42,950 nt of DNA from a virus (Duplodnaviria; Caudoviricetes). The translations under genes and the position numbers were made by a program. Shown here in pieces: positions 1,571 through 23,745 of this stretch. The notes below the pieces were generated by a model. The model was not told the DNA's origin. It was given only the letters and a program-made list of their open reading frames with translations, and did no database searches. The DNA lies in IMG/VR virus record IMGVR_UViG_3300045540_000070, positions 1 to 42,950 of that record; one strand, written 5' to 3'. The stretch's first letter is position 1. Each line of letters begins with the position of its first letter.

Positions 1571-3973
1571 TTAAAAAGGTATTTCATCGTTATTAATTTC
1601 TTCTTTTTCGCCCTTGAACTTAATCCATCTACCCGTGTTATTACGTCCTTCTGTCGGCATAACGCCTGTAACAAATAGTCCGTAAGATACTAACCACTTG
1701 TAAAAGATAGTCCGTGATATAGTCATCTTAGCCTTTGGTGCAAAGTCTGGATTGTCTTGGATAAAGTCAAGGTATAAATCTTGCTTGTATAGCGTTTCTC
1801 CTAATGCGATTGTTGGTTTATTATCCATTAGTCCAGCCCATTCAATAAACTCGTGGCACGTATCGGCTGATAACTTACGAATCTTAAGATTAACAAACTC
1901 ACTCTTAACTAAACCTGTAGTTAAATATGCTTGTAAACTTTTAATCATATAATTATCAAACTTACACCACTCACCATTATCCCACTCAGTAAATAACAAT
2001 CTACCGAATTCAACCAATGGCGTGAACTCCTTGGTGTAGAACTGCTTGAACTCCAGCTCCCACTTACGTCTCTCGAATGAGTTACCCTTACCCTTGATGG
2101 CGTAGTTAGTCGTGATAATAATCTTAGGAGACTTCGCGAACGGGATATGCATCGCATCTTTGTTCTTTCTCTCTAAGGTTATACCCTCTGTGATCACACT
2201 GAACAGCCTCTCAAAGTTAAAGTGTTTCTTAACGTCGTCAAACGCAAGTACCTGTGTATCAACCGATACTGTCTGGTATGGAAATGAACTATCGAAGTTC
2301 ACGCTCTTACCGTCAATGAATGCCAGCTTCTTCATCTGAGATATTGCATTGGTAAATAACCCCTTTCCTGTTCCTCCCTCTGGATTATCTGTTATTACCT
2401 CGTCATTTAGAATAACGGCAGGACAATAAGATAAATTCTTGTATCCGTGCATAAGGAATCCAATCGTGCTCTCAAGAGAGTCAATGCGAGTCTGCTCATC
2501 GTTTGATACGTTTGCTATAAATGTCTTGAAGTCACAGTCTGTGATCTCACAAATGTTGAAATCTCTATCTATAACCTGATCTGCCCAGATATAACCACCA
2601 AGGTCGATATAGTCAATAATATCAATATTGTCCTTGTCTATGCGGACAGCGCAATTCTTGTAATAAAGGTACGCATTATCCTTGTCGTCCTCCATGAAGT
2701 ATACATCAACAGAAGATAGTAGCGATAGGAAGTCTTCCTTAAAGAACCTAGTCTTATCAGCGAAGTAGTTGTACACTGACAGATCATCTACGGTCTGTAG
2801 GTGGTTTAGTACGAAGTCCTTGATCTCATCCTCTGACGTGTGGTCGATGAGGTTGTTCGTTACCTTTACAAAGATGTAACTCTTACCACCATTCGGCATG
2901 TATTTGAAGAATCCATTGTCCTCCAAAAACTCTCTGAATAGGTAGTGAATGATGCTGATGGCACCCTTGTCTGACTTGATCCAGTACTTCTGAGTTGCCT
3001 CGTCTCTGTCAATGGTATCAATCACATCGTCAATTGCGTTCTCCGATATGTTAAGCTCCATAAGCTCTGACTTGATATCTTTCTTAGATACACCGCGTTT
3101 AATCTTCTGACGAACTTGCGTTAACTTATCATCGTCTTCATAAAACTTTGTACCGAACTTCTGTGTCTGTCTGTAGGCTGAGTCGATGATAGTTCTTATT
3201 TCTTGAATTGGGAAGTCTTGACTGTCGAACTGACCTGCCACATACTCAGCAAGCGACTTACTTACACCATAGTCATTGAATGCTGATGCTAATATGAATA
3301 CGTTATTATTACGCTCACCATCTACAAGCCCATACTTTTTAGTCCACCACTTCATAAGAATATCGATAATCTTGTTCTCGTTAGTGATTGGAATAGTAGG
3401 TTTAGAGGTATCCCTATCCATCTCTATATACTCGTGCTCAGACAGTGTATTCCATAACTCACTAGATGTGTTCACATAAATCTCTGGGTCGTATGACTCA
3501 TAGCATACACGTGATATGTTCTTGGACGTCTTATCGAAATATTTTGAGTTGAAGTGTTTCTCAAGCGAGTTGAAGTAGTTCTTGTGGTTCTCAATGTCTC
3601 TTGGCACTTTAACAATTACTTTTAGTCCGTTCCCTGACGGAGAAACAAATACTGAGTAGGTGTACTTATTCTTTGAAATTAGAGCCTTATCAACCTTCAT
3701 TTCTTTCTCGGTAGCATAACCATCAAAGTCTAGGCAAATGAATCCCGAGTGCTCTAAAATAGCCTTATCCTCACGCTTTGTAAACTTACCTGAGAAACAT
3801 ACCGCTGGTAGTTGTTGCTTAAGTATATTTCTTGTAGACTTATCCTTCTCGTTACGAATACCTTCAACAATGTCTTTAGAGGCACCGTTCTGTATTCTGT
3901 CAAGCATAACCCCAATCGTTTTAAAGAATGGTGTTGATGTTGACTTGATGTTTTTGAAGATAGTTATTTCCAT
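1571..3973 (-). CDS. DNA primase-helicase (BT4734/VirE-N-like primase, PriCT-like domain, C-terminal P-loop helicase)
   Basis: 800 aa; HSGFICLDFD and FVSPSGNGLK primase-like motifs, GERNN, Walker A EGGTGKG, Walker B LAFDD, acidic DEIPF tail. Confidence 0.85.
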   Translation of the reverse strand: MEITIFKNIKSTSTPFFKTIGVMLDRIQNGASKDIVEGIRNEKDKSTRNILKQQLPAVCFSGKFTKREDKAILEHSGFICLDFDGYATEKEMKVDKALISKNKYTYSVFVSPSGNGLKVIVKVPRDIENHKNYFNSLEKHFNSKYFDKTSKNISRVCYESYDPEIYVNTSSELWNTLSEHEYIEMDRDTSKPTIPITNENKIIDILMKWWTKKYGLVDGERNNNVFILASAFNDYGVSKSLAEYVAGQFDSQDFPIQEIRTIIDSAYRQTQKFGTKFYEDDDKLTQVRQKIKRGVSKKDIKSELMELNISENAIDDVIDTIDRDEATQKYWIKSDKGAISIIHYLFREFLEDNGFFKYMPNGGKSYIFVKVTNNLIDHTSEDEIKDFVLNHLQTVDDLSVYNYFADKTRFFKEDFLSLLSSVDVYFMEDDKDNAYLYYKNCAVRIDKDNIDIIDYIDLGGYIWADQVIDRDFNICEITDCDFKTFIANVSNDEQTRIDSLESTIGFLMHGYKNLSYCPAVILNDEVITDNPEGGTGKGLFTNAISQMKKLAFIDGKSVNFDSSFPYQTVSVDTQVLAFDDVKKHFNFERLFSVITEGITLERKNKDAMHIPFAKSPKIIITTNYAIKGKGNSFERRKWELEFKQFYTKEFTPLVEFGRLLFTEWDNGEWCKFDNYMIKSLQAYLTTGLVKSEFVNLKIRKLSADTCHEFIEWAGLMDNKPTIALGETLYKQDLYLDFIQDNPDFAPKAKMTISRTIFYKWLVSYGLFVTGVMPTEGRNNTGRWIKFKGEKEEINNDEIPF

Positions 3974-3977
3974 AATT

Positions 3978-4160
3978 TTAAAACGGACAATCCGATTTTT
4001 TGTTTTTTAATATTAATTCTTTGTATTCTCGTTTAATCTTTTCCTGTATTGCTTCACGAATGAACTTACCTACATCAACGTTATAATACTTCATTTTTTG
4101 AAGCGTTTTTAATTGTGTTTCTGAAATCCTTATAACCTTTGTTTTATTGAGTAGTTTCAT
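3978..4160 (-). CDS. small putative DNA-binding protein (ribbon-helix-helix-like) next to the cassette array
   Basis: 60 aa; TKVIRISETQLKTL...VGKFIREAIQEKI fits a strand-helix-helix pattern (inference). Confidence 0.55.
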   Translation of the reverse strand: MKLLNKTKVIRISETQLKTLQKMKYYNVDVGKFIREAIQEKIKREYKELILKNKKSDCPF

Positions 4161-4244
4161 AATTGTAATACATTTATAGCGTTTATTTAGGAGTTAGTGG
4201 CAAGCGTAGGACAGCACTCCGCCCCACGCTTCGCCAAAAACACT

Positions 4245-4460
4245 TTACCATTCAGCCACAAACATTTGTCTGTAACCGCAATGATTTACAAGGAAATCAA
4301 TTTTACCCCACGAGCCATTACCTAAGTCGTGTTGTGGCCGAAATTGTCCTTTGTTCGATTTTCCATTTAACACGAGAACCTCTTTGTTTTGGGTTACTCT
4401 TACATCGTGTTTTTTGCGAAGCTGGAAAAGCACTTCGTCCTCATTGTGTTTACGTGCCAT
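4245..4460 (-). CDS. cassette 1 hypothetical protein
   Basis: 71-aa ORF between junction 4193 and site 1. Confidence 0.65.
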   Translation of the reverse strand: MARKHNEDEVLFQLRKKHDVRVTQNKEVLVLNGKSNKGQFRPQHDLGNGSWGKIDFLVNHCGYRQMFVAEW

Positions 4461-4485
4461 AATTTAAGCAGTTTAAAACGCCAGC

Positions 4486-4619
4486 CACTAACATTGTATA
4501 ACTGCAAGTGGGGGCTGTGTGCCACATTGCAAGTTATTGCTCCTAATTTAGTTTAGTGTCAATGTGAAGGTTCGGAGCTTTCAATCCCCCACCTGACAGT
4601 TATACAAGTATCGTTACAA
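4486..4619 (+). repeat. attC-like site 1 (134 bp)
   Basis: CACTAAC...GTTACAA; arms ttgtataactg/cagttatacaa and caagtggggg/cccccacctg. Confidence 0.85.
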
Positions 4620-4625
4620 GTAATC

Positions 4626-5369
4626 CTAAGCAACATCGTCGAACATCGTTACTTGATTAATATTTGATTTAGAAATTATTCCTCTTGCAGTATTAAAGAT
4701 TGTTTTTCCTGCTTCATAATCTACCAGGTTACGAGCCATTTTAAGCATCGGTTGTTCTCCTTTGTATTTGGTAAAATCGTATTTATGAAATTCACACAAT
4801 CCTTTTAATTCTTGTTTAGCAGATGAAATAGCAAATCTTCTATCTCCTAAATCGTTAGGTAATTTAAAGTTTGTCCAATACAAATGGCGACCTCTTTTTA
4901 TCGCAGGAACTAATGGCTCATAATAAGGGATTACATTTTCAACAACCCATTTACCTGTTTTATAATAATGCTGTAAAAACAAAATTTCTTGATATAATTT
5001 CATATCGGGATAAATTGCTTCTGTTGTAGTTTCATAATTTGAACTATTCCAATACCTGGCTCTTGAATGACTTGGACAAGGTGGCGAACTCCATATAAAA
5101 TCAAATTCTTTATAATTATCAAGTAAATACTGGTGTGCATCCGCTACAATTACCTTATCATTTGGAAATCTCTCTTGATACAATTTTGCTGCTTCCGGGT
5201 CAAGTTCTACGGCTGTAACTTCACAATCTTCCCATAGCAGTCTATTACCACCTAAACAAGCATATAAATTCAAAACACGAAAAGGACTACTTGTAACACG
5301 TGCTATACTCAATGCCTCATTCTCTGTATTATCGTTTTCTAACATCTTTTTGTTTTTAATAATTAACAT
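4626..5369 (-). CDS. cassette 2 DNA (cytosine-5) methyltransferase
   Basis: Motif I LNLYACLGG, motif IV WSSPPCPSHS, motif VI VVENV; start (5369 or 5345) lies inside site 2. Confidence 0.85.
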   Translation of the reverse strand: MLIIKNKKMLENDNTENEALSIARVTSSPFRVLNLYACLGGNRLLWEDCEVTAVELDPEAAKLYQERFPNDKVIVADAHQYLLDNYKEFDFIWSSPPCPSHSRARYWNSSNYETTTEAIYPDMKLYQEILFLQHYYKTGKWVVENVIPYYEPLVPAIKRGRHLYWTNFKLPNDLGDRRFAISSAKQELKGLCEFHKYDFTKYKGEQPMLKMARNLVDYEAGKTIFNTARGIISKSNINQVTMFDDVA

Positions 5370-5413
5370 TCGTTTTCATAAATCGGCACTAAGTATAGCA
5401 CCATACGTTATGT
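5291..5413 (+). repeat. attC-like site 2 (123 bp)
   Basis: TTGTAAC...GTTATGT; arms gtgctatact/agtatagcac. Confidence 0.85.
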
Positions 5414-5414
5414 A

Positions 5415-5648
5415 TCATTTTTTCTTACGCATTATATCAGCAATAGCATAATTCCATCTTTCCATCAATTCACCATCCGCTTGGTTATGGAAAATTTTAA
5501 TCATTTCCATACTTGTAAATCTTTCAGGTGAACCTTTAAGGTAGAAATGAGAATTACCACTTGGTTTATAATCAGGAAATGATTCCGTTTTATAATGTTG
5601 TATATCTAAATCCACCAACCAATCTAACATCTTTTCTAAATTTTCCAT
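5415..5648 (-). CDS. cassette 3 hypothetical protein
   Basis: ORF fills the cassette; likely start MENLEKM at 5648 (alternative 5669). Confidence 0.6.
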   Translation of the reverse strand: MENLEKMLDWLVDLDIQHYKTESFPDYKPSGNSHFYLKGSPERFTSMEMIKIFHNQADGELMERWNYAIADIMRKKK

Positions 5649-5660
5649 AATAAAAACGAT

Positions 5661-5791
5661 ACATAACAAAGTGTATAAGTAATAACCGAGTTATGTGGTT
5701 TATTTAAGTTACTACTTCTATTTAACATTATCTTTAATTCAAACTTTTGTACTTCTAAATCGGTTACTACTCATACACTCAACCGTTATGT
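5661..5791 (+). repeat. attC-like site 3 (131 bp)
   Basis: ACATAAC...GTTATGT; arms agtgtataagtaataaccga/tcggttactactcatacact. Confidence 0.85.
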
Positions 5792-5977
5792 GATAGTTTC
5801 AGAGACGTTTATTTTATAAAACATATTCGGATGACATCCAAAAATATAAAACCATCCATCTTCTAAATTTACAAGTCCGTCTTCGTGAATATGAACTATT
5901 TTATGTTTTTTACCGTGATATAAAACCACTTCTCCAACTTTATAAGTCAGTTTGTCTATGTAATATCTATCGTTCAT
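5786..5977 (-). CDS. cassette 4 hypothetical protein
   Basis: 63 aa; its TAA stop is the TTA of the GTTA junction. Confidence 0.55.
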   Translation of the reverse strand: MNDRYYIDKLTYKVGEVVLYHGKKHKIVHIHEDGLVNLEDGWFYIFGCHPNMFYKINVSETIT

Positions 5978-6293
5978 TACAAACTAATTTTAAAGCTGAA
6001 ATCCCACCTTGTTTTGAAGTTTCATCTATATGTAAATCGTTTATGATTTTAATAGCTTTTTCTACTTTATTAAAAAAATTAAAATCAATGATTAAAGGAA
6101 TTACAAATAAATCAAAATATTCATCATTATCAGTTACACCTCCGCAGAAAAATTCTCCAGAAGAAACTATAAAGCATTCAGGCTTTCCGTTTGACCGATA
6201 TTCTGTTTTTAGACAAATTGTTTCTCCAAATAAAAATAATCCAATAGGGCAATTCCCTAATCTTACTTTTCGTTTCTTTTTTGTAATTAGCAT
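5967..6293 (-). CDS. cassette 4 hypothetical protein
   Basis: 108-aa ORF. Confidence 0.6.
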   Translation of the reverse strand: MLITKKKRKVRLGNCPIGLFLFGETICLKTEYRSNGKPECFIVSSGEFFCGGVTDNDEYFDLFVIPLIIDFNFFNKVEKAIKIINDLHIDETSKQGGISALKLVCNER

Positions 6294-6313
6294 CTTTTTT
6301 ATTTTTAAATTAA

Positions 6314-6433
6314 TTATTCTTCAATATTAAATATGTAGTCTATAATGATGTAGAAAAAACCAAAAAAAGTCATTATTGGAATTAATATTGGTCTTAATAT
6401 TTTAACTTCTAAAATTCTATTTATTATTTTCAT
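6314..6433 (-). CDS. cassette 4 small hydrophobic peptide (39 aa)
   Basis: Translated by hand: MKIINRILEVKILRPILIPIMTFFGFFYIIIDYIFNIEE. Confidence 0.4.
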   Translation of the reverse strand: MKIINRILEVKILRPILIPIMTFFGFFYIIIDYIFNIEE

Positions 6434-6434
6434 A

Positions 6435-6728
6435 TTACTTCTGTTTATGTAAGTTTAAAAAATTAATAATATCTTGACCTTGAAAATAAACTGTTCCTTT
6501 TGTGCTTTCTTCTCCATTCATTTTTATTTGAATGTAGATTATTTTAGTTTTATCACGCCACGTTTGAATTGTTCTTACGCTTACATTTAAAACTTCCGCT
6601 AATTCTTTAACGGTATAATAAGCATCAGGATTTATTCCTTGTTTTACACTCGGTATTGCTAATTCGGTTTCGTTTAATTGTTGGATTAAACTTTCCATTG
6701 TATCCATTAATTTCTCTGTATTGTCCAT
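6435..6728 (-). CDS. cassette 4 excisionase-like / MerR-type HTH (HTH_17-like) DNA-binding protein
   Basis: YYTVKELAEVLNVSVRTIQTWRDK followed by ...VYFQGQDIINFL. Confidence 0.75.
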   Translation of the reverse strand: MDNTEKLMDTMESLIQQLNETELAIPSVKQGINPDAYYTVKELAEVLNVSVRTIQTWRDKTKIIYIQIKMNGEESTKGTVYFQGQDIINFLNLHKQK

Positions 6729-6825
6729 TTTTTATCTGTATTATTGTTTTTATTGGCTTTAACACCATTTTAATTATCTGTATTTTGTTAAGGGATTTGT
6801 TAGAACTTATGTTAAAGAAACCATC

Positions 6826-6956
6826 ACATAACAAGCGTTTGGCGAGATTGCTGATTTTGTGGTTCATTCACGTTTTCGTTTCGCATCATATTTTATTTTA
6901 AGTTGAAGTTTTATTTTTCCGAAGTCAGCAACCTCGCCAAGTTGCAAACGTTAGCT
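6826..6956 (+). repeat. attC-like site 4 (131 bp)
   Basis: ACATAAC...GTTAGCT; arms ttggcgagattgctga/tcagcaacctcgccaa. Confidence 0.85.
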
Positions 6957-7184
6957 GCAAGCTGGCGGACTTGGCAACTCCATCCAATGTGTTACAGTGG
7001 CTTCTTTGACTGGGTATTCACTTTCAAAATGCGTCCCCTTCCAATATTCAATACCCTCGCCCCATTCTGTATAAGTTAATACTTTGACATACTTACCTCC
7101 ATCTGGTAGTCTGTCTTTTACAGAAATCCAGCCAGCAGCTAACATTGCATTGGCGTTATTGCCGTTTAGTTCTTTGTTTGACAT
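6951..7184 (-). CDS. cassette 5 DUF551-like protein
   Basis: WISVKDRLP...VTHWMELPSPP; starts in site 5 and stops on the junction. Confidence 0.8.
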   Translation of the reverse strand: MSNKELNGNNANAMLAAGWISVKDRLPDGGKYVKVLTYTEWGEGIEYWKGTHFESEYPVKEATVTHWMELPSPPACS

Positions 7185-7263
7185 TTTGTATAAATTTTAA
7201 TCATTAGTAATTCTGTTCAACTTTTGTGCATCGGCAACAAACGCCAATGCTTTACCGTTAGCA
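7137..7263 (+). repeat. attC-like site 5 (127 bp)
   Basis: AGCTAAC...GTTAGCA; arms gcattggcgttattgccg/cggcaacaaacgccaatgc. Confidence 0.85.
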
Positions 7264-7698
7264 GTAACTTTTGAAAAGCGTAACGCAAATCAGAATAATT
7301 AATGCTATAAAATTTATCCAATTAAAAAGCCTTACATTTTGATACCAAGCGGAATCAACTATAAAATTTCTTGCACCATCAAGATACATCAATGGAATAA
7401 AAGTTATAAATCTAAATGGAATCCATAATAAATTAAAAATTATGCACCAAATTGTTATCTGTAATCCTGTAATTGGCAACTTAATTCCTTTGTGTAATTG
7501 CCTAAATGAAAAAGTTGTGAAGTCAAAAAATAAATATACATAATGACCTTTTTTAATATTCTTACCTATTCTAAAAAATCCGTTATGAAAACCAAAATAG
7601 TATTTATCATAATTAGAAAATTTACGAACCTTAAAGAACAAAGCTACTGCTAACAGCATTTTGTGGCAATTGCGGGGTTTAGGTTTATTTTCAAGCAT
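7258..7698 (-). CDS. cassette 6 putative membrane protein
   Basis: 146 aa with hydrophobic segments; starts in site 6 and stops on the junction. Confidence 0.6.
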   Translation of the reverse strand: MLENKPKPRNCHKMLLAVALFFKVRKFSNYDKYYFGFHNGFFRIGKNIKKGHYVYLFFDFTTFSFRQLHKGIKLPITGLQITIWCIIFNLLWIPFRFITFIPLMYLDGARNFIVDSAWYQNVRLFNWINFIALIILICVTLFKSYC

Positions 7699-7782
7699 TG
7701 TTTTTTAATTTAAAGTTTAGTCTATATTTGTATGGTTGGTGTTAAATTTTCCGCAATTGCCACAAAATGCGAAACGTTAGCA
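7648..7782 (+). repeat. attC-like site 6 (135 bp)
   Basis: TGCTAAC...GTTAGCA; perfect 20-bp arms gcattttgtggcaattgcgg/ccgcaattgccacaaaatgc. Confidence 0.9.
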
Positions 7783-7783
7783 G

Positions 7784-8023
7784 TTATTTTCCCAATCGCA
7801 CAAATCCGCCTTTATCTTGTGTTAGATATTCAACAGAATCAACTTCTATAATTGAATATCTGTATCCATTTATAACTCTTTCATCAATCAATTTTATTCT
7901 GTTATTGGACTTCCTGTTAATAGAATTTGATTCTTTTTCGGTGCATCCGACAAATAAAACAACTGCTAACAGCACATAAGCGCAAGCAATTAATTGGGTC
8001 TTGAATTTAAATTTTGTTTTCAT
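7784..8023 (-). CDS. cassette 7 putative lipoprotein
   Basis: Basic N-terminus, hydrophobic core, LFVGC lipobox-like motif. Confidence 0.65.
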   Translation of the reverse strand: MKTKFKFKTQLIACAYVLLAVVLFVGCTEKESNSINRKSNNRIKLIDERVINGYRYSIIEVDSVEYLTQDKGGFVRLGK

Positions 8024-8099
8024 TTTGTTATTATTTATGATTAATTTAATTATTATTTTTTATCGGCAATTGCCTTCGCTTATATGCAAAACGTTAGTG
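7964..8099 (+). repeat. attC-like site 7 (136 bp)
   Basis: TGCTAAC...GTTAGTG; arms gcacataagcgcaagcaatt/aattgccttcgcttatatgc. Confidence 0.85.
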
Positions 8100-8105
8100 G
8101 CAAGG

Positions 8106-8330
8106 CTAAGAACGATTATCCATATCAACAAGTTTATCAAACTTATATTTCATATCAGTCCACCAACTACCATCTCCAAGATGCCACCCACACCATTGCT
8201 CAATAAGTTTTGAATTATCCATTTCATTAATGTCTTCATCATAGGTATTATCATTTTGGTCGTCAGCACCTTGTCTTTGTCTTACTTCGCCTAAAATTCC
8301 AAGTACCTTTAATTTTTCAATATTTGTCAT
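8106..8330 (-). CDS. cassette 8 hypothetical protein
   Basis: 74-aa ORF filling the cassette. Confidence 0.65.
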   Translation of the reverse strand: MTNIEKLKVLGILGEVRQRQGADDQNDNTYDEDINEMDNSKLIEQWCGWHLGDGSWWTDMKYKFDKLVDMDNRS

Positions 8331-8358
8331 TTTTATTTAATTTTGTGAAAAGCCCAGC

Positions 8359-8489
8359 CACTAACAGCGTGTATAAAAAATGTCGGGTTCTCGGTTAATT
8401 TAAAGTTTTGTAATTATAATTAAGTTTTGCGTTTGCTTAACGTTTCGGTTTCAAAATCCGCCACTTCTTATACACGCAAAACGTTATGT
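8359..8489 (+). repeat. attC-like site 8 (131 bp)
   Basis: CACTAAC...GTTATGT; arms gcgtgtataaaaaatgtcgg/ccgccacttcttatacacgc. Confidence 0.85.
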
Positions 8490-8495
8490 GCCATT

Positions 8496-8738
8496 CTATT
8501 CCATCCAAACGTATTTACTTGGGTGATATTTTTTTGGTCTTTTAAGAGTTTGTTTTTTATCGCAAACTGCACATCTTCTACTAAATCCTTCTTCAAGCAA
8601 TACTTTACATCTGTTATCTTTAAATATCGACCATTTATAAATTTCCCAATCGTGAAAAGAAAAACGGCACATAACAGCGGTTATAAGCAATTGCCACTTA
8701 TGTATTAATTTTGAAAATAGTCTTGTACTTGTATTCAT
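8496..8738 (-). CDS. cassette 9 small Cys/His protein
   Basis: CRFSFHDW...RRCAVCDK; starts inside site 9. Confidence 0.6.
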   Translation of the reverse strand: MNTSTRLFSKLIHKWQLLITAVMCRFSFHDWEIYKWSIFKDNRCKVLLEEGFSRRCAVCDKKQTLKRPKKYHPSKYVWME

Positions 8739-8802
8739 TGTTTATAAATTGAAAGTTAAGGCAGTTTTATTGGCAACTGCTTATAGCCACATAACGTTAT
8801 CA
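8669..8802 (+). repeat. attC-like site 9 (134 bp)
   Basis: ACATAAC...GTTATCA; arms ggttataagcaattgcca/tggcaactgcttatagcc. Confidence 0.85.
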
Positions 8803-9111
8803 CTCAGCTTGGTCGGAATCCGTAAAAGAAATAATATCTATAATTTGAATAATAAATAAGGTAATGCACATAACTAAATATAACCAATGTCTATATCCCC
8901 AATGCCAAGTTGGGTCGTGAAATCCACATTCAGCGTAATTACAATGTTTATAAATAGTATTGTAAATACTATCATTTGGAGTTCCACTTCCTAAACATTT
9001 CCAATCTCCTAAAAAGGAGTGTAAATAATCGCCAACAAATGTTGAAAATATTGCGATTGTGAAAAGTAAAATAACTTTTAAAGAAATTTTTTGTGATTTG
9101 TTAAATTTCAT
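8800..9111 (-). CDS. cassette 10 two-TM membrane protein
   Basis: Two hydrophobic helices flanking a Cys/His loop (HDPTWHWGYRHW). Confidence 0.65.
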   Translation of the reverse strand: MKFNKSQKISLKVILLFTIAIFSTFVGDYLHSFLGDWKCLGSGTPNDSIYNTIYKHCNYAECGFHDPTWHWGYRHWLYLVMCITLFIIQIIDIISFTDSDQAE

Positions 9112-9156
9112 TTTGATTTAGTTTATAATTAATAATTGTGTTTAAAAAAGCCGATA

Positions 9157-9290
9157 ATATAACAATAGCTATAAGTAATTAAGGCAACAGTCTTTGATTT
9201 AAAGATTTGTTCTCTGTCCTTTTTATATCAATTTTCAATTTAGAAAATCGGTATTTCATTCCTTAACTACTCATAGCAATACCGTTATTT
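9157..9290 (+). repeat. attC-like site 10 (134 bp)
   Basis: ATATAAC...GTTATTT; arms gctataagtaattaagg/ccttaactactcatagc. Confidence 0.85.
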
Positions 9291-9383
9291 CAACTTATCC
9301 TTCCACTCTTGGTAAATCCAAGTGTTTACCCATATAAATAGTACGAAGAAACATCCTACTAAAAATGCTGCTATATTTTCCAT
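9285..9383 (-). CDS. small membrane peptide (32 aa) whose stop codon is the array's right junction
   Basis: Translated by hand: MENIAAFLVGCFFVLFIWVNTWIYQEWKDKLK; coupled to 9383..9589. Confidence 0.5.
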   Translation of the reverse strand: MENIAAFLVGCFFVLFIWVNTWIYQEWKDKLK

Positions 9384-9589
9384 TAGTCTTTTAGGTATTT
9401 AATTACCGTTTCTTCAAAGTCATTCCATTGACATTCAAGTAACTCACTTGCATCAATTCCATTTAGTGTTGGGTCGTATATTTCAAATTCTTCATATTCT
9501 GCTGGGTCTTCGTGAGTTGCTGGTCTCCCTGATGAGTAACTAAACCTATATTCAAATTCATGTCCTAAGTAATTTATTGTGTGTTTCAT
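9383..9589 (-). CDS. small acidic phage protein
   Basis: 68-aa ORF. Confidence 0.6.
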   Translation of the reverse strand: MKHTINYLGHEFEYRFSYSSGRPATHEDPAEYEEFEIYDPTLNGIDASELLECQWNDFEETVIKYLKD

Positions 9590-9601
9590 AATGTGTTGTT
9601 G

Positions 9602-9628
9602 AAAAAGCCTCCTTGTTACGGGAGGCTT
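9602..9628 (-). terminator. intrinsic terminator after the SSB gene
   Basis: aagcctcc/ggaggctt stem followed by a U-run on the minus strand. Confidence 0.65.
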
Positions 9629-9636
9629 GGTTGGTT

Positions 9637-9960
9637 TTAGAAAGGAAGTGAATCTTCCTGTACTTGTTGTTGTAACGGCTGTGCTCCTTCAGATAGTTTT
9701 TTAATTTTCCATCCTTTAATTGAATTGAAATACTTGTCAATCCCCTCAGCATTTGTCCATTTACGACCTCCGATATTGATTGAAACTTCTACAACGTCAC
9801 CAACTTTGTATGGATCGATTAGGTCTGATTTGTCTCCACCAAACTCAATTAAGATACTTTGTGGATATTTTTCATCCGTGGTTATTACTAATTCACTTTT
9901 TTTGAATTTTTCGTTCCCAACATTTAAACTAATTACTTCAATTTTTCCTTCTAATGTCAT
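9637..9960 (-). CDS. DUF3127-family putative ssDNA-binding protein
   Basis: KYPQSILIEF...VEVSINIGGRKW...YFNSIKGW, SSB-like EDSLPF tail. Confidence 0.8.
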   Translation of the reverse strand: MTLEGKIEVISLNVGNEKFKKSELVITTDEKYPQSILIEFGGDKSDLIDPYKVGDVVEVSINIGGRKWTNAEGIDKYFNSIKGWKIKKLSEGAQPLQQQVQEDSLPF

Positions 9961-10018
9961 TTTATTTGATTTTAAATTTTAACCTACCTTTTTAGTCTGT
10001 TGTCGGCTCTTCAGTTTG

Positions 10019-12638: not shown

Positions 12639-13013
12639 CTATTTATGAAATTCAATTAAATATCCATCAGCTATAATAAGTCTAAGACATTTATCATCAT
12701 CAAACAATTGTAATGTTATTTCTGCTCCTTTTTCATCAATGCAATCAATGATTTGATAACCATCTCCATTTAATGTTTTACCATCTTTACTACCTGTGAT
12801 TTGATGTAATCTCTTAATTCTACCATCTGTGTAGTATAATACAATATCTTTTACATTATCAGCATTAAACACTACAGTGACTTCTGTTGTTACCCAAGGT
12901 TGCAATACACCTTTTGATTTAGTAATATAAGAAGTGTATTTCTTAACAAACGCATCTTGTGCAAATGTTGACATGCTCAATAGTAGTAGAGCTCCTAATA
13001 ATATTCTTTTCAT
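12639..13013 (-). CDS. secreted/periplasmic protein
   Basis: Signal peptide MKRILLGALLLLSMSTFA-Q. Confidence 0.65.
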   Translation of the reverse strand: MKRILLGALLLLSMSTFAQDAFVKKYTSYITKSKGVLQPWVTTEVTVVFNADNVKDIVLYYTDGRIKRLHQITGSKDGKTLNGDGYQIIDCIDEKGAEITLQLFDDDKCLRLIIADGYLIEFHK

Positions 13014-13243
13014 AATTTGTTTTTAAATGTTTCGTTGTAGTATTGTTCTGCTGATATTTCTTTAGTTAAAGAAAGTGGATGAGATATATCCATTCCGTTT
13101 GTTTTTCCTTCACTATAACCATCAGTAACCTGTTCTTTTTCCATTTCTTTAGCTTGTTCAATAATGTTTTGAGGTATAACTCCTTCTTTTATTTGGTAAT
13201 TTAAAATACCCTCTACTAACCATTCTACTGCTGTTTGTTTCAT
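13010..13243 (-). CDS. MKQTAVEWL-family small protein
   Basis: Start inferred from the paralog 1152..1370. Confidence 0.7.
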   Translation of the reverse strand: MKQTAVEWLVEGILNYQIKEGVIPQNIIEQAKEMEKEQVTDGYSEGKTNGMDISHPLSLTKEISAEQYYNETFKNKL

Positions 13244-13244
13244 C

Positions 13245-13502
13245 TTATTTCTTTTTAAATTGTTTAAACCATCTTTCACAATGTTCATTTTTTGAATCTA
13301 ACTCTTGTACAGGACTACCATAACCAATGTTAAACCCTATCTTAAAAGCACTTTTTAATTCTTCCTCACTATAACTTCTTTCTTGTTGCCATTTAGCACC
13401 TTCAATAAACCTATTCCTTCCCCATTCATTCCAATCTCTTCCATTCTCTATCCTAATTGGATATAATCTTTCAGCGACTTCTTCAAGTGTTTCTTCTTTC
13501 AT
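13245..13502 (-). CDS. ETLEE/ERSYSEEE-module small protein
   Basis: Likely start MKEETLEE; paralog of the C-terminus of 12279..12635. Confidence 0.65.
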   Translation of the reverse strand: MKEETLEEVAERLYPIRIENGRDWNEWGRNRFIEGAKWQQERSYSEEELKSAFKIGFNIGYGSPVQELDSKNEHCERWFKQFKKK

Positions 13503-15276: not shown

Positions 15277-15915
15277 TTAAATTTTATTACCTTTCTTAAA
15301 ATTATCTATTGCCCATAATGGTTGAAAGTTTGTGTAGTGATTTAGTTTAATTAGGTGTTCTTCATCTGTTGCACGTGATACGGGGTAGATATGGTCTAAA
15401 TGCCACAGTCCTTGATTTTCCCATGTCATTCCTTCAGTGAACTGATTTTCTAAGTGGGTTTTAAACTCTTCAAACGAGCATCCAAGTATTTTATAAGTTT
15501 TAGATTTTTTAGTGTAGCTATTTCCTTTTATTGATATTCTTATTAAAGTTGATATATTACATCTTAATTTAAATAATGGATCAACTAACTTTCTATTTTT
15601 AAAGTAATAACTTATTTTATTTTTATTTTTAGATGTGTATTTTTTATTTTGTTCTTTTATATTTTCTTTGTTGTTTAAACGATATTGTTTTTTATTTAAT
15701 TTTATACATTCTTTGTTGTCTATGTAATATTTTTTAGATTTTTTTATTATATATTCTTTATTGTCTAAATAATATTTTTTATTATATTCTTTATTATTTA
15801 TTCTATATTCTTTTTCACATTCTTTACATTTTGATTGATAGCCATTTTTTTTAGATTTATTTTTATAAAAATAAATAAATTCCTTCTCAACTTTGCATTT
15901 TGTACAAACTTTCAT
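15277..15915 (-). CDS. HNH endonuclease-like protein with N-terminal Zn finger
   Basis: CTKC...CKEC, K/N/Y-rich helix, WHLDHIYP...NHYTNFQPLWAIDNFKKGNK; start taken at MKVCTKC. Confidence 0.85.
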   Translation of the reverse strand: MKVCTKCKVEKEFIYFYKNKSKKNGYQSKCKECEKEYRINNKEYNKKYYLDNKEYIIKKSKKYYIDNKECIKLNKKQYRLNNKENIKEQNKKYTSKNKNKISYYFKNRKLVDPLFKLRCNISTLIRISIKGNSYTKKSKTYKILGCSFEEFKTHLENQFTEGMTWENQGLWHLDHIYPVSRATDEEHLIKLNHYTNFQPLWAIDNFKKGNKI

Positions 15916-15930
15916 ATTATTAAATAACAA

Positions 15931-19145: not shown

Positions 19146-19763
19146 TTAAATTAATTTTAATTGTGTGTTATTTATTATTTTGTTTGATTTCATTAAATCA
19201 TCCATCGCCCAAAGAGGTTGAAAGTTTGTATAATGATTAAGTTTTATTAATTCGTTTTCACTCTTTGCGCTTGATATTGGTATAATGTGATCCAGGTGCC
19301 AAAGGTTTTTATTTTCCCAATTCATACCTTTTGAAAATTGTATTTCTATATAGTTTTTAAAATCTTCAAATGAACATCCTAAAATTTCATGGGTTCTGGA
19401 TGCTTTTGTATAACCTCTTTTTGTTATTGAGTTTCTTATTGCGGTTCTTATTATTGCGGTTAATCTAAATAAAGGATCTATTTGTTTTTTATTTTTAACG
19501 TATAGACTTATTCTGTCTTTATTTTTTAAATAACTTATTCTGTTTCTTTCTTTTTTGGTCAATGTCGATTTTAATACTTTTCTTTCTATCGTCAAAGATT
19601 GTTTTGCTAGTCTTAAAAGTTTTTTATTTTCAGCCTCTCTTAGTTTGGTTCCTTTTTGATAGTCATTTAATTGCTTTGCTACTTGGTCAATTTGGTACTT
19701 ATTAATCGCGTCTCTCGCCTCGTCAATTGATTGCTTAATGTAGTTTTCGTTTCTGTATTTCAT
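19146..19763 (-). CDS. HNH endonuclease-like protein (paralog of 15277..15915)
   Basis: LGCSFEDFK...WHLDHIIP...LIKLNHYTNFQPLWAMDD. Confidence 0.85.
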   Translation of the reverse strand: MKYRNENYIKQSIDEARDAINKYQIDQVAKQLNDYQKGTKLREAENKKLLRLAKQSLTIERKVLKSTLTKKERNRISYLKNKDRISLYVKNKKQIDPLFRLTAIIRTAIRNSITKRGYTKASRTHEILGCSFEDFKNYIEIQFSKGMNWENKNLWHLDHIIPISSAKSENELIKLNHYTNFQPLWAMDDLMKSNKIINNTQLKLI

Positions 19764-22143: not shown

Positions 22144-23745
22144 ATGAGTACAGGATATTCTCCGAAGGACCTATTATTCGACAAAGAAGGTAGGGATAAA
22201 TTAATTAACGGCATCACTACAATGTCTAAAGCAGTAAAGAGCACACTCGGTCCACGAGGTAAAACAGTGTTAATTGAAAGTCCAAATCACACGCATGGAA
22301 TTACGGTCACAAAAGATGGAATTTCAGTAGCAAAGTCAATTTTCTTATTAGACCCAGTAGAAAACTTAGCGGTAAAAATGATGAAAGAAGCAGCTGATCG
22401 TACAGCCACAAGTGCTGGTGATGGGACTACAACTTCTATCGTACTTACAGAAGCAATTGTACTACAAGGTCAAGAGCTTTTGAACGACAAACATAATGTA
22501 ACAGAAGTAATACGACACATTAACGACATTACGACATCAATCGTATCAAGATTAGAAAAGAAAGCAAAGAAAGTTAGTGGTAAAACATTACGTAATGTAG
22601 CATCAATATCAGCGAATAACGATTCGGAACTTGGGGCTATAATCGCTGGTACGTACGAAAAGGTCGGTAAGGACGGTATTGTAACAATCGAAGACTCTCA
22701 GACATCGGAGACATATACGAGTGTAACAAATGGTATTAAGATAGAAAGAGGATATACATCTAATATGTTTGTTAACGACCATAAGAAAGACGAGTGCATT
22801 TTAGACAACGTATTAGTATTGGTTACCGACCAGGAGATTAGTAATATTTTATCTATTGAAAAGATATTAAAGACTGTTATTCAAGAGCAGAAGAAGTTAT
22901 TAATTATCGGTACTTGTAGTCAAAACGTAATTAATACACTAGCCGCAAACGTAGTAAAGAACAACCTTAAGCTATGTAATATTATACCTCCTCAGTTTGG
23001 GTACAAGAGGAATGAGTTGATGGGTGATATTGCGTTGGCTGTAGGTGCTAAGTACTTCTCAGAGAGCACAGGAGACGATTTGAGTTTAATGGAGATTAAT
23101 GATTTAGGAAAAGCAGACAAGATTATTGTAGGAAGAGATAATACAGTAATTGTACGTTCAGAAATTGCAACAGATGAAGTAACTCAAAGAGTAGCTCAAC
23201 TATGGGATGCTTATAACTTATCGGATAAAAAGGCAGACAAGGACTTTATCAAGCAACGTATCGCTAGTTTAACAGGTGGTATTGGAGTTATTTATGTAGG
23301 TGGTAACTCAGACCTTGAGCAAAAGGAACGTAAGGATAGGGTTGACGACGCTGTATGTGCGGTTAGGTCTGCGTTAGAGGAAGGTATCTTACCAGGTGGT
23401 GGATTAGCCTTGTTCAGTGAGTCTTACAGTATTATTGCTGATGCAGACGATACAATTGACGATATTAGTCCAAATAAGTATGTGGCTATGCATATTATGG
23501 CACGTGCAATACAATCACCACTCTTGCAGATTATGACTAATGCTGGATTGGACGGATATGAGGTAATGGAGTTATCGTTTGTTAAGGACTGGGGGTATGA
23601 TGTTAAGAATGAGGTGTATGGAGACATGTTTAAGATGGGTATTATCGACCCATTAAAGGTAACAAAGAACGCACTTAAGAACGCAGTAAGCGTAGCAACG
23701 ACAATATTAAGTACAAATGCAATTATAACAATAACACGAGCGTAA
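22144..23745 (+). CDS. groEL: phage chaperonin GroEL
   Basis: TLGPRG, TKDGISVAK, GDGTTT, ILPGGG, IIDPLKV; TATATTTG box at 22111-22118. Confidence 0.97.
   Translation: MSTGYSPKDLLFDKEGRDKLINGITTMSKAVKSTLGPRGKTVLIESPNHTHGITVTKDGISVAKSIFLLDPVENLAVKMMKEAADRTATSAGDGTTTSIVLTEAIVLQGQELLNDKHNVTEVIRHINDITTSIVSRLEKKAKKVSGKTLRNVASISANNDSELGAIIAGTYEKVGKDGIVTIEDSQTSETYTSVTNGIKIERGYTSNMFVNDHKKDECILDNVLVLVTDQEISNILSIEKILKTVIQEQKKLLIIGTCSQNVINTLAANVVKNNLKLCNIIPPQFGYKRNELMGDIALAVGAKYFSESTGDDLSLMEINDLGKADKIIVGRDNTVIVRSEIATDEVTQRVAQLWDAYNLSDKKADKDFIKQRIASLTGGIGVIYVGGNSDLEQKERKDRVDDAVCAVRSALEEGILPGGGLALFSESYSIIADADDTIDDISPNKYVAMHIMARAIQSPLLQIMTNAGLDGYEVMELSFVKDWGYDVKNEVYGDMFKMGIIDPLKVTKNALKNAVSVATTILSTNAIITITRA

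Follow-up and report, generated by a model that had tools for sequence, protein, structure and literature searches.

A phage array of ten hairpin-ended cassettes with inverted genes is probably a form of a Bacteroidota integron-like system

Ten hairpin-ended cassettes with antisense genes

The DNA analysed here, called the window, is the virus record IMGVR_UViG_3300045540_000070 (Caudoviricetes), which is linear, 42,950 nt long and 71% complete. It encodes terminase, portal, GroEL, single-stranded DNA-binding (SSB), exonuclease VIII-like and primase-like proteins, and the minus strand predominates among its genes from the left end up to 19,763, the leftward operon region. Between 4194 and 9284 lies the subject of this study, an array of ten cassettes of 307–1165 nt each (Table 1). 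Every cassette ends on the right in an attC-like hairpin of 115–128 nt (from AAC to GTT), and the array begins on the left at a junction that has no hairpin, which gives it a polarity. In every cassette the main open reading frames (ORFs) lie on the minus strand, antisense to this polarity, with each hairpin 5′ of its gene, as a preliminary description of this DNA had already noted; in classical integrons the attC follows its gene. We consider it probable that the array is the phage form of an integron-like system of Bacteroidota: it has the site polarity of the host arrays, its genes are on the opposite strand, and five reading frames begin in the loops of their own hairpins, which are likely to be their translation starts.

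Table 1. Features of the array and its borders (window coordinates; ORFs of the cassettes are on the minus strand; the arrow marks the presumed crossover point)
Feature	Coordinates	Strand	Main ORF	Hairpin site	Inverse core (..TAAC) ends at	Junction G (G↓TTA)	Stop relative to junction	Remarks
60-aa gene	3978..4160	-						predicted ribbon-helix-helix fold; 730 homologs; occupies the recombinase position of other phages
attI-like docking junction	4161..4196	+				4193		hairpin-less
Cassette 1	4194..4613	+	4245-4460	4483-4622	4492	4613	+52	own start
Cassette 2	4614..5407	+	4626-5369	5288-5416	5297	5407	+13	loop start, Val frame
C5-cytosine DNA methyltransferase (cassette 2)	4626..5345	-						likely start 5345 in site 2 loop; longest ORF to 5369
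Cassette 3	5408..5785	+	5415-5648	5658-5794	5667	5785	+8
Site 3 leader	5636..5728	-						30 codons; starts in site 3 loop
Cassette 4	5786..6950	+	5786-5977, 5967-6293, 6314-6433, 6435-6728 (HTH_17)	6823-6959	6832	6950	TTA itself	four ORFs
Site 4 leader	6824..6889	-						20-21 codons; starts in site 4 loop; TGA 6824-6826 inside the 10-nt core
Cassette 5	6951..7257	+	6951-7184	7134-7266	7143	7257	TTA itself	loop start, Leu frame; DUF551 from residue 18
Cassette 6	7258..7776	+	7258-7698	7645-7785	7654	7776	TTA itself	loop start, Leu frame
Cassette 7	7777..8093	+	7784-8023	7961-8102	7970	8093	+8	loop start, Leu frame
Cassette 8	8094..8483	+	8106-8330	8356-8492	8365	8483	+13	own start; no loop ATG
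Cassette 9	8484..8796	+	8496-8738	8666-8805	8675	8796	+13	loop start, Val frame
Cassette 10	8797..9284	+	8800-9111	9154-9293	9163	9284	adjoining TGA	own start; inverse core mismatched
Native 32-aa phage gene	9285..9383	-						its TAA stop is formed by the last junction's right half
Terminator-like hairpin	9605..9628	-						3′ of the SSB gene; precedes the array on the coding strand; five T follow

As in attC, each site consists of an inverse core (RYYYAAC) and a core (GTTRRRY) that close an imperfect palindrome. TAAC and CGTTA are invariant in all ten sites, the RRRY part being only loosely matched. The start of a cassette is the perfect reverse complement, over 9–10 nt, of its own inverse core in nine of ten cases; the exception, cassette 10, is likely the oldest of the array. 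All ten hairpins fold, the bottom strand being the more stable in each, and they carry a one-sided bulge of 2–4 nt near R′ together with variable single bulges, to which no canonical L-box/spacer pattern could be assigned. An Rfam scan of 3900–10000 gave no match at E≤1, and a repeat search of the region picked up some of the hairpin arms only. For most cargo proteins no family and no close homolog was found. ORF 6625–6867 and the plus-strand ORFs were taken as spurious, since they have a weak start or cross sites. In cassette 4, a contig of sequencing run X4 joins 6298 to 6452 and lacks the 39-aa ORF.

Complementarity of the cassette ends cannot by itself assign a hairpin to a gene, and three separate tests were therefore used. 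First, a contig of run X1 passes directly from 4611 to 5406 and lacks precisely 794 nt, comprising cassette 2 and its site 2; the joint is at the shared CGTTA, with a depth of 25.5 for the deletion joint and 31.3 for cassette 2. X1 is possibly the source sample, and X2 has the same size and the same graph; contigs only were used. Joints with short sides in runs X3, X4, X5 and X8 were set aside as other organisms. Second, cassette 6 recurs together with its hairpin (93–95% over 7256–7780) between other neighbours in two loci, L550 and L549 (430-kb contig). Third, in 15 cross-locus pairs of homologous bodies (17 minus two same-locus rows), the right-hand hairpin was kept at 0.84–0.95 in eight, at 0.65–0.73 in three, and was at background (mean 0.53) in four; the flanks were at background save in three pairs, all sitting at the docking junction. 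These three results assign the hairpin to the gene that it starts, the one on its left, and not to the gene on its right, the outcome that the preliminary description had named as speaking against it.

We next compared this orientation with that in bacterial chromosomes. A genome scan gave 106 stretches, many in Bacteroidota, and our own covariance model scored 157 sites in 77 of these loci. To call a cassette, the detector required paired arms together with 9 nt of matching core; orientation was taken from the longest ORF. The genome loci contain 85 cassettes, of which 56 are forward, 25 reversed and 4 ORF-less. By contrast, 238 of the 249 cassettes in the viral, metagenome, cultured-phage and window loci are reversed, 10 are forward and one has no ORF. 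Several of these 10 look like host DNA or miscalls, and the reversed genome cassettes are mostly those of L218, L219 and the prophage L207, the others being in small contigs of metagenome-assembled genomes (MAGs), besides one likely miscall. By their gene content, L218 and L219 look like phage contigs inside MAGs. In this comparison, which the preliminary description had suggested, the same site family carries inverted genes in phages and forward genes in host arrays. Host and phage sites have in common their length (median 124), the side of the bulge and the fold bias, the bottom strand being the more stable in 75/80 phage and 55/56 host sites.

Three of these loci deserve a separate mention. 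L218 and L219, binned as Methanolobus and Saccharofermentanales, have dense reversed arrays with one cassette in common and look like mis-binned large-phage DNA. The reversed cassette L207:5617–6135 is in a Lutibacter aestuarii prophage with capsid, portal and terminase genes. In a Croceivirga chromosome (L247, L277, L301; G001:C1 ~1,281,000–1,401,900), matches to the site-family pattern extend across ~120 kb and begin directly after an insertion-less tyrosine recombinase; to judge from its sequence, this stretch is likely a very large sedentary array.

The preliminary description had also assigned the TAA stops at 5786, 6951, 7258 and 9285 to the TTA of the junction. All four do coincide with it, but the stop at 9285 belongs to the native 32-aa gene, so that just three of the ten cassettes use the junction TTA. 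Among the 238 pooled phage cassettes, the stops cluster at +1 (60), +8 (21) and +13 (75) from the junction G, which points to a conserved 15-nt cassette head beyond the core. That +13, a frequent stop position in phages, might be the start position of host genes was considered and rejected (2/56).

The proposed docking module and the array-adjacent recombinases

The junction at the left end of the array lies upstream of a 60-aa gene. The model of this protein (predicted local distance difference test score, pLDDT, 80) has helices at 14–25 and 30–49. The ten best Foldseek rows include Arc and CopG, although all had E>0.5, a weak match, and an ESM Atlas search returned unnamed viral clusters only. 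A short palindrome just before the start codon may be the operator of this gene. In related loci the junction is conserved up to GTTA and the sequence then diverges. In 32 of 49 distinct junction loci, 40 of which had at least 400 nt upstream, the distance from this junction to the gene start is 29–37 nt, and an inverse core further downstream pairs with it over at least 9 nt. The array is therefore headed, like an integron, by a hairpin-less conserved junction that is followed by differing cassettes, and from its sequence 4161–4196 would be the docking site. The gene and its junction occur in unrelated gene contexts, including the cultured phages 6H, FPSV-F7 and P12002S, and represent a mobile module in unrelated phages (L161–L186, L393–L416). 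In the relatives L002–L004 (primase identity 88–96%), the array and the 60-aa gene are both absent; L005 carries the gene, a junction of the same kind and different cassettes.

A search with PF00589 found no tyrosine recombinase in the record, which is 71% complete, at E≤10, and no recombinase gene adjoins the 60-aa gene in 26 viral loci. In L226, L232, L244, L255 and L301, the host array follows a tyrosine recombinase gene of the same strand at a distance of 40–110 nt. In 9 of the 80 viral loci listed, a recombinase gene of 266–289 aa lies just beyond the att-like junction and reads away from it, and reversed cassettes were detected upstream in seven of these nine. The array-adjacent enzymes of hosts and phages have a K-to-H spacing of 59–67 and lack the IntI insertion (helix I2), which is linked to the reading of extrahelical bases. 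In IntI1, the corresponding K171 and H277 are 106 residues apart (PMC2095811; papers are cited by their PubMed Central numbers, and what is taken from them refers to the accessible parts of their text). The array-adjacent recombinases match 2A3V in two pieces. In a tree, the host and phage enzymes and two transposase-linked proteins form one clade apart from XerC/D-like recombinases (support 100/99); within it host and phage enzymes are intermixed rather than separate (6 and 5 changes), so no direction of transfer is claimed. Their position suggests that these recombinases act on the hairpin sites. A second, larger integrase gene directly follows the array recombinase at L316:4953–7003, and in L319 and L342 related recombinases are beside IS91-like transposase genes (label by sequence reading).

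Could these be ordinary attC sites served by a canonical integron integrase, that is, a usual cluster of attC sites lacking an integrase (CALIN), whose genes were inverted by selection for the direction of phage transcription? The GTTRRRY-like cores, the length of 115–128 nt and the bottom-strand bias would fit, and Qi et al. 2023 described 17 phage CALINs and reported that attC sites of phage CALINs recombine with IntI1 (PMC9892861). Nevertheless, we think this improbable. The host-array recombinases, which lack the insertion, match TIGR02249 in two pieces with 186–197 bits, below the cut-off of 265, and IntegronFinder detects almost no complete integrons in Bacteroidetes (PMC9024848). Moreover, P12002L_attC1 was the only one of six sites that IntI1 did not recombine (PMC9892861), and this is the sole tested hairpin of the present layout: in the Polaribacter phage P12002L (L543:7177–7245, 8006–8060), the published attC1 is such a hairpin with the same polarity. 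The published attC2 maps to the left junction and is not a cassette hairpin, which would explain the ‘divergent’ sites reported.

Reading frames that open in the hairpin loop and re-pairing at the inverse core

The ORFs of cassettes 2, 5, 6, 7 and 9 begin in the loops of their own hairpins, as the preliminary description had stated, and the peptides that it quoted are present. When the site interiors of cassettes 1–9, those bounded by the detector, were shuffled, a loop ATG reading at least 30 codons past the core was seen in 0.44 cassettes, compared to 5/9 in the real sites, and none of 2000 shuffles reached five. With a start-context matrix built from 55 other genes of the window, the loop ATGs rank at the 85th–99th percentile of all ATGs, each with an A at -3, the base reported to determine starts in Flavobacterium johnsoniae (PMC6847099). 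The other candidate Mets, located in arm or core, rank at the 38th–53rd percentile. In cassette 2, whose methyltransferase matches PF00145 (E 9e-10) from residue 30 and reads through the core in the Val frame, the second Met at 5345 (96th percentile) is probably the start rather than 5369 (28th). These comparisons make the loop the likely translation start of the five cassettes.

The remaining sites behave differently. Cassettes 1, 8 and 10 have strong starts of their own, while sites 3 and 4 have strong loop starts whose frames close early. The site 4 leader, which resembles the commonest phage leader family, had been noticed before; it is present, although it stops inside the core and not just past it. 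The site 3 leader, similar to it, and the four ORFs of cassette 4 had been missed. The stop of the site 3 leader overlaps the weak start of the cassette 3 cargo gene, and a translational coupling of the two is possible.

In support of these results, 111 of the 238 pooled phage cassettes read through from the loop, compared to 11 in shuffles; 115 start in the site, 85 of them in the Val frame, 25 in the Leu frame and 5 in the third, and 123 start downstream of it. A strong start is found in 89 of the 115 loop-start phage sites and in 0/56 host sites (bottom strand), and the coding-strand loops contain 52% and 32% A, respectively. We also looked, as the preliminary description had suggested, at whether homologs outside arrays lack the site-encoded extension. 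Homologs of the cassette 2 methyltransferase do lack it and have a short N-terminus, with the start just before the domain, in 76 of the 77 loci with the motif (80 loci, minus three without it). The exception, L093, is itself a cassette with a different hairpin and leader. In cassette 7, the site-coded part is predicted to be the front of a likely lipoprotein signal peptide, and most of its 47 homologs keep a signal peptide, with different leaders in either frame.

Several points weigh against our interpretation. The record itself contains no recombinase. Five of the ten cassettes here, and about half of the phage cassettes, start outside the site, and 24 of the 115 loop-start ORFs have a further Met within 15 codons past the core. 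Cassettes 5, 6 and 9 carry a second Met in arm or core, which is still site-coded and in a weak context. The leader residues look near neutral (29 non-synonymous and 9 synonymous loop codon changes), the leader of cassette 7 being the one functional exception, so most leaders may be by-products. Note that the start-context matrix was trained on this window and mostly measures A-richness. The pooled loci were picked by patterns built on this window, and the pooled counts, de-duplicated by exact sequence only, are not independent samples. Finally, X1 is one sample, the shorter side of its joint has 30 letters, and the X1 pieces listed do not include the join of cassette 2 and site 2 as it stands in the window.

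Some of these points would suit the view that the loop starts are incidental, A-rich loops (44–52% A on the coding strand in phages) creating upstream ATGs while the real proteins start at or after the core and the site has no role in translation: near-neutral leaders and second Mets are what this view would expect. We give it little credence, because read-through is ten times that of composition-matched shuffles, cassette 7 has no Met after the core and cassettes 2 and 6 have none for ~90 codons, and the cassette 7 signal peptide needs the site-coded part, its homologs keeping one with different leaders.

The hairpin and the gene body also re-pair. When differing hairpins are found on related bodies, the break is exactly at TAAC (L164/L396/L407; L458/L461; site 9 vs L457/L489). 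A contig of run X1 (depth 41.7) is identical to the window across site 2 and into the first part of cassette 3, but to the left of 5294 it has 23 other letters, which on the minus strand extend the site 2 leader in frame as VSGSTFVNA; the same peptide follows the core in a different methyltransferase-like cassette of L406. Moreover, 17 of 18 disjoint near-identical leader pairs are on unrelated bodies. The 20 members of one hairpin family are attached to 18 bodies and have 14 cores, and the 17 members of the site-8 hairpin family are attached to 15 bodies.

Shuffling and leader swaps could in principle be the work of phage homologous recombination on short repeats and not of a site-specific recombinase, since an exonuclease VIII-like protein and SSB are encoded beside the array and the record has no recombinase. 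This appears very unlikely: every inspected breakpoint is at CGTTA or TAAC with just 4–5 shared letters, and other phages keep a recombinase at the junction. Lastly, that phage cassettes are host-type cassettes whose body flipped between the two inverted 10-nt cores is geometrically possible, because perfect inverted cores bound the bodies, and is nonetheless largely refuted and scarcely credible, since the asymmetric base just inside the cores (position 11, A/G) keeps the host polarity in phage cassettes (237 and 201 of 238 phage; 54 and 52 of 56 host) and BLASTP of the 238 phage against the 56 host cargo proteins gave no match, with median lengths of 87.5 and 185 aa.

A candidate cassette system and its relation to known integrons

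The reading that we favour, an integron-like system in phage form, can be put as a mechanism. The docking junction (4193) would be the point of entry for cassettes, and their exit would be a G↓TT crossover on the folded bottom strand that takes the gene along with its hairpin. In an inverted cassette the mRNA corresponds to the bottom strand and therefore has the hairpin as its 5′ region; the A-rich loop could then act as a start region lacking a Shine-Dalgarno sequence, with arm and core coding for 14–21 residues. Hairpins and gene bodies would be re-paired by another crossover, at the inverse core (AAC↓): matching frames would then fuse the leader to the new body, and other frames would leave an orphan leader. 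The loss of the insertion, on which the strand choice of IntI depends, perhaps favours this crossover. The recombinase, a short tyrosine recombinase without the IntI insertion, is likely to be supplied in trans by the host or a related phage.

Going further, and with somewhat less than even confidence, we propose that an undescribed cassette system, operated by an insertion-less tyrosine recombinase, is common to Bacteroidota and their phages, and that phages use it as a combinatorial gene builder. Crossover at G↓TT would shuffle whole cassettes, and crossover at AAC↓ would give new protein bodies other hairpin-coded front ends (a start signal and in some cases a lipoprotein signal peptide), all inside one living phage population. 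Phages that have no recombinase would borrow the enzyme by means of the docking module that the ribbon-helix-helix-like gene marks.

How the cassettes are transcribed bears on a further claim of the preliminary description, that the sites double as initiation modules through which any cassette is expressed from the leftward operon. The first part holds for about half of the cassettes, as an evolutionary module with no guarantee for any given one; the second part is not supported. The start belongs to the cassette's own site and not to the position in the array, 123/238 phage cassettes and 5/10 here start downstream of the site, and read-through requires matching frames, as the early stops in the leaders of sites 3 and 4 illustrate. 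In addition, transcription from the leftward operon would have to pass the terminator-like hairpin at 9605–9628, between that operon and the array; similar hairpins are present in L002–L004. Scans for sigma-70 promoters (90 vs 82) and terminators (6 vs 7.8) were at shuffle level, and a scan for the Bacteroidota -7 box revealed no clear promoter for the array. The 32-aa gene next to the array has a homolog in the array-less relative L002 (87.6% over 9287–9383). Elsewhere, the window encodes a GroEL-like chaperonin (22144–23745; PHROG 5725, E 9e-132) and, in the leftward region, two endonuclease VII/HNH-like genes (15277–15930, 19146–19763); 1153–1383 and 13008–13256 are gene-start and coding repeats of small early genes, ~11.9 kb apart with 69–91% identity.

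We conclude that the system is real, widespread and works like an integron, and that by its recombinases and gene orientation it is not a member of that class. One site family thus carries forward cargo in chromosomes (one array of ~120 kb) and reversed cargo in phages, where the site is the 5′ end of the gene. This would run counter to the assumptions that attC follows the gene, that the IntI insertion is needed for hairpin recombination, that just the bottom strand is used (PMC5027507) and that Bacteroidetes are nearly integron-free (PMC9024848). If confirmed, it would be a second means of recombining hairpin sites and a concrete route by which phages turn over accessory genes and fuse N-termini; it would also offer a handle on how new cassettes arise and explain the recurring odd N-termini in phage protein databases. 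The module is carried by the cultured phages named above, two of which, 6H and FPSV-F7, have a loop-start cassette, and it is therefore testable.

The layout is apparently unpublished: we found no published description of it, in a literature that largely did not include subscription journals, and the accessible parts of PMC5737381 and PMC11023631 contain nothing closer. With ten attC-like sites in 5.1 kb and no integrase nearby, the array corresponds to a CALIN, and it shares with the phage CALINs of PMC9892861 an integrase-less attC-like cluster in a phage and a DNA methyltransferase cargo; the portions of its text that were covered do not mention gene inversion or starts inside sites. The P12002L CALIN resembles it in its att-like left junction, matching cassette ends and minus-strand genes, but has hairpins of 50–60 nt and no loop start. 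For the ‘integron-like’ subgroup of simple tyrosine recombinases and archaeal XerA, the accessible text of PMC8138268 ties no arrays or sites to insertion-less members.

The array resembles sedentary integrons in its putative docking site, its head-to-tail cassettes, its presumed G↓TT crossover and the favoured bottom-strand fold, as well as in having homogeneous sites, one hairpin family on many genes. Here, in contrast, there is no intI beside the attI-like junction, the candidate recombinase lacks the IntI insertion and the cargo is antisense rather than sense. Because the recombinases beside such arrays lack this insertion, ‘integron’ and ‘attC’ hold only as a likeness. Further differences are the one-sided 2–4-nt bulge by R′, the 9–10-nt cores and the frequent re-pairing at the inverse core. 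In integrons, the use of the bottom strand only keeps the genes in register with Pc (PMC5027507); here a Pc-type promoter cannot drive the genes, since they face the docking site. Finally, translation of a following cassette is helped by ORF-11 and ORF-17 of attI1 and by short ORFs within attC (PMC8876359). There too the site carries a start region and the core triplet can be a stop codon, but those ORFs encode separate sense-strand peptides coupled to the downstream cassette, whereas here the frame of the cassette's own antisense gene opens in the site. The nearest analogues of those ORFs in the array are the leaders of sites 3 and 4.

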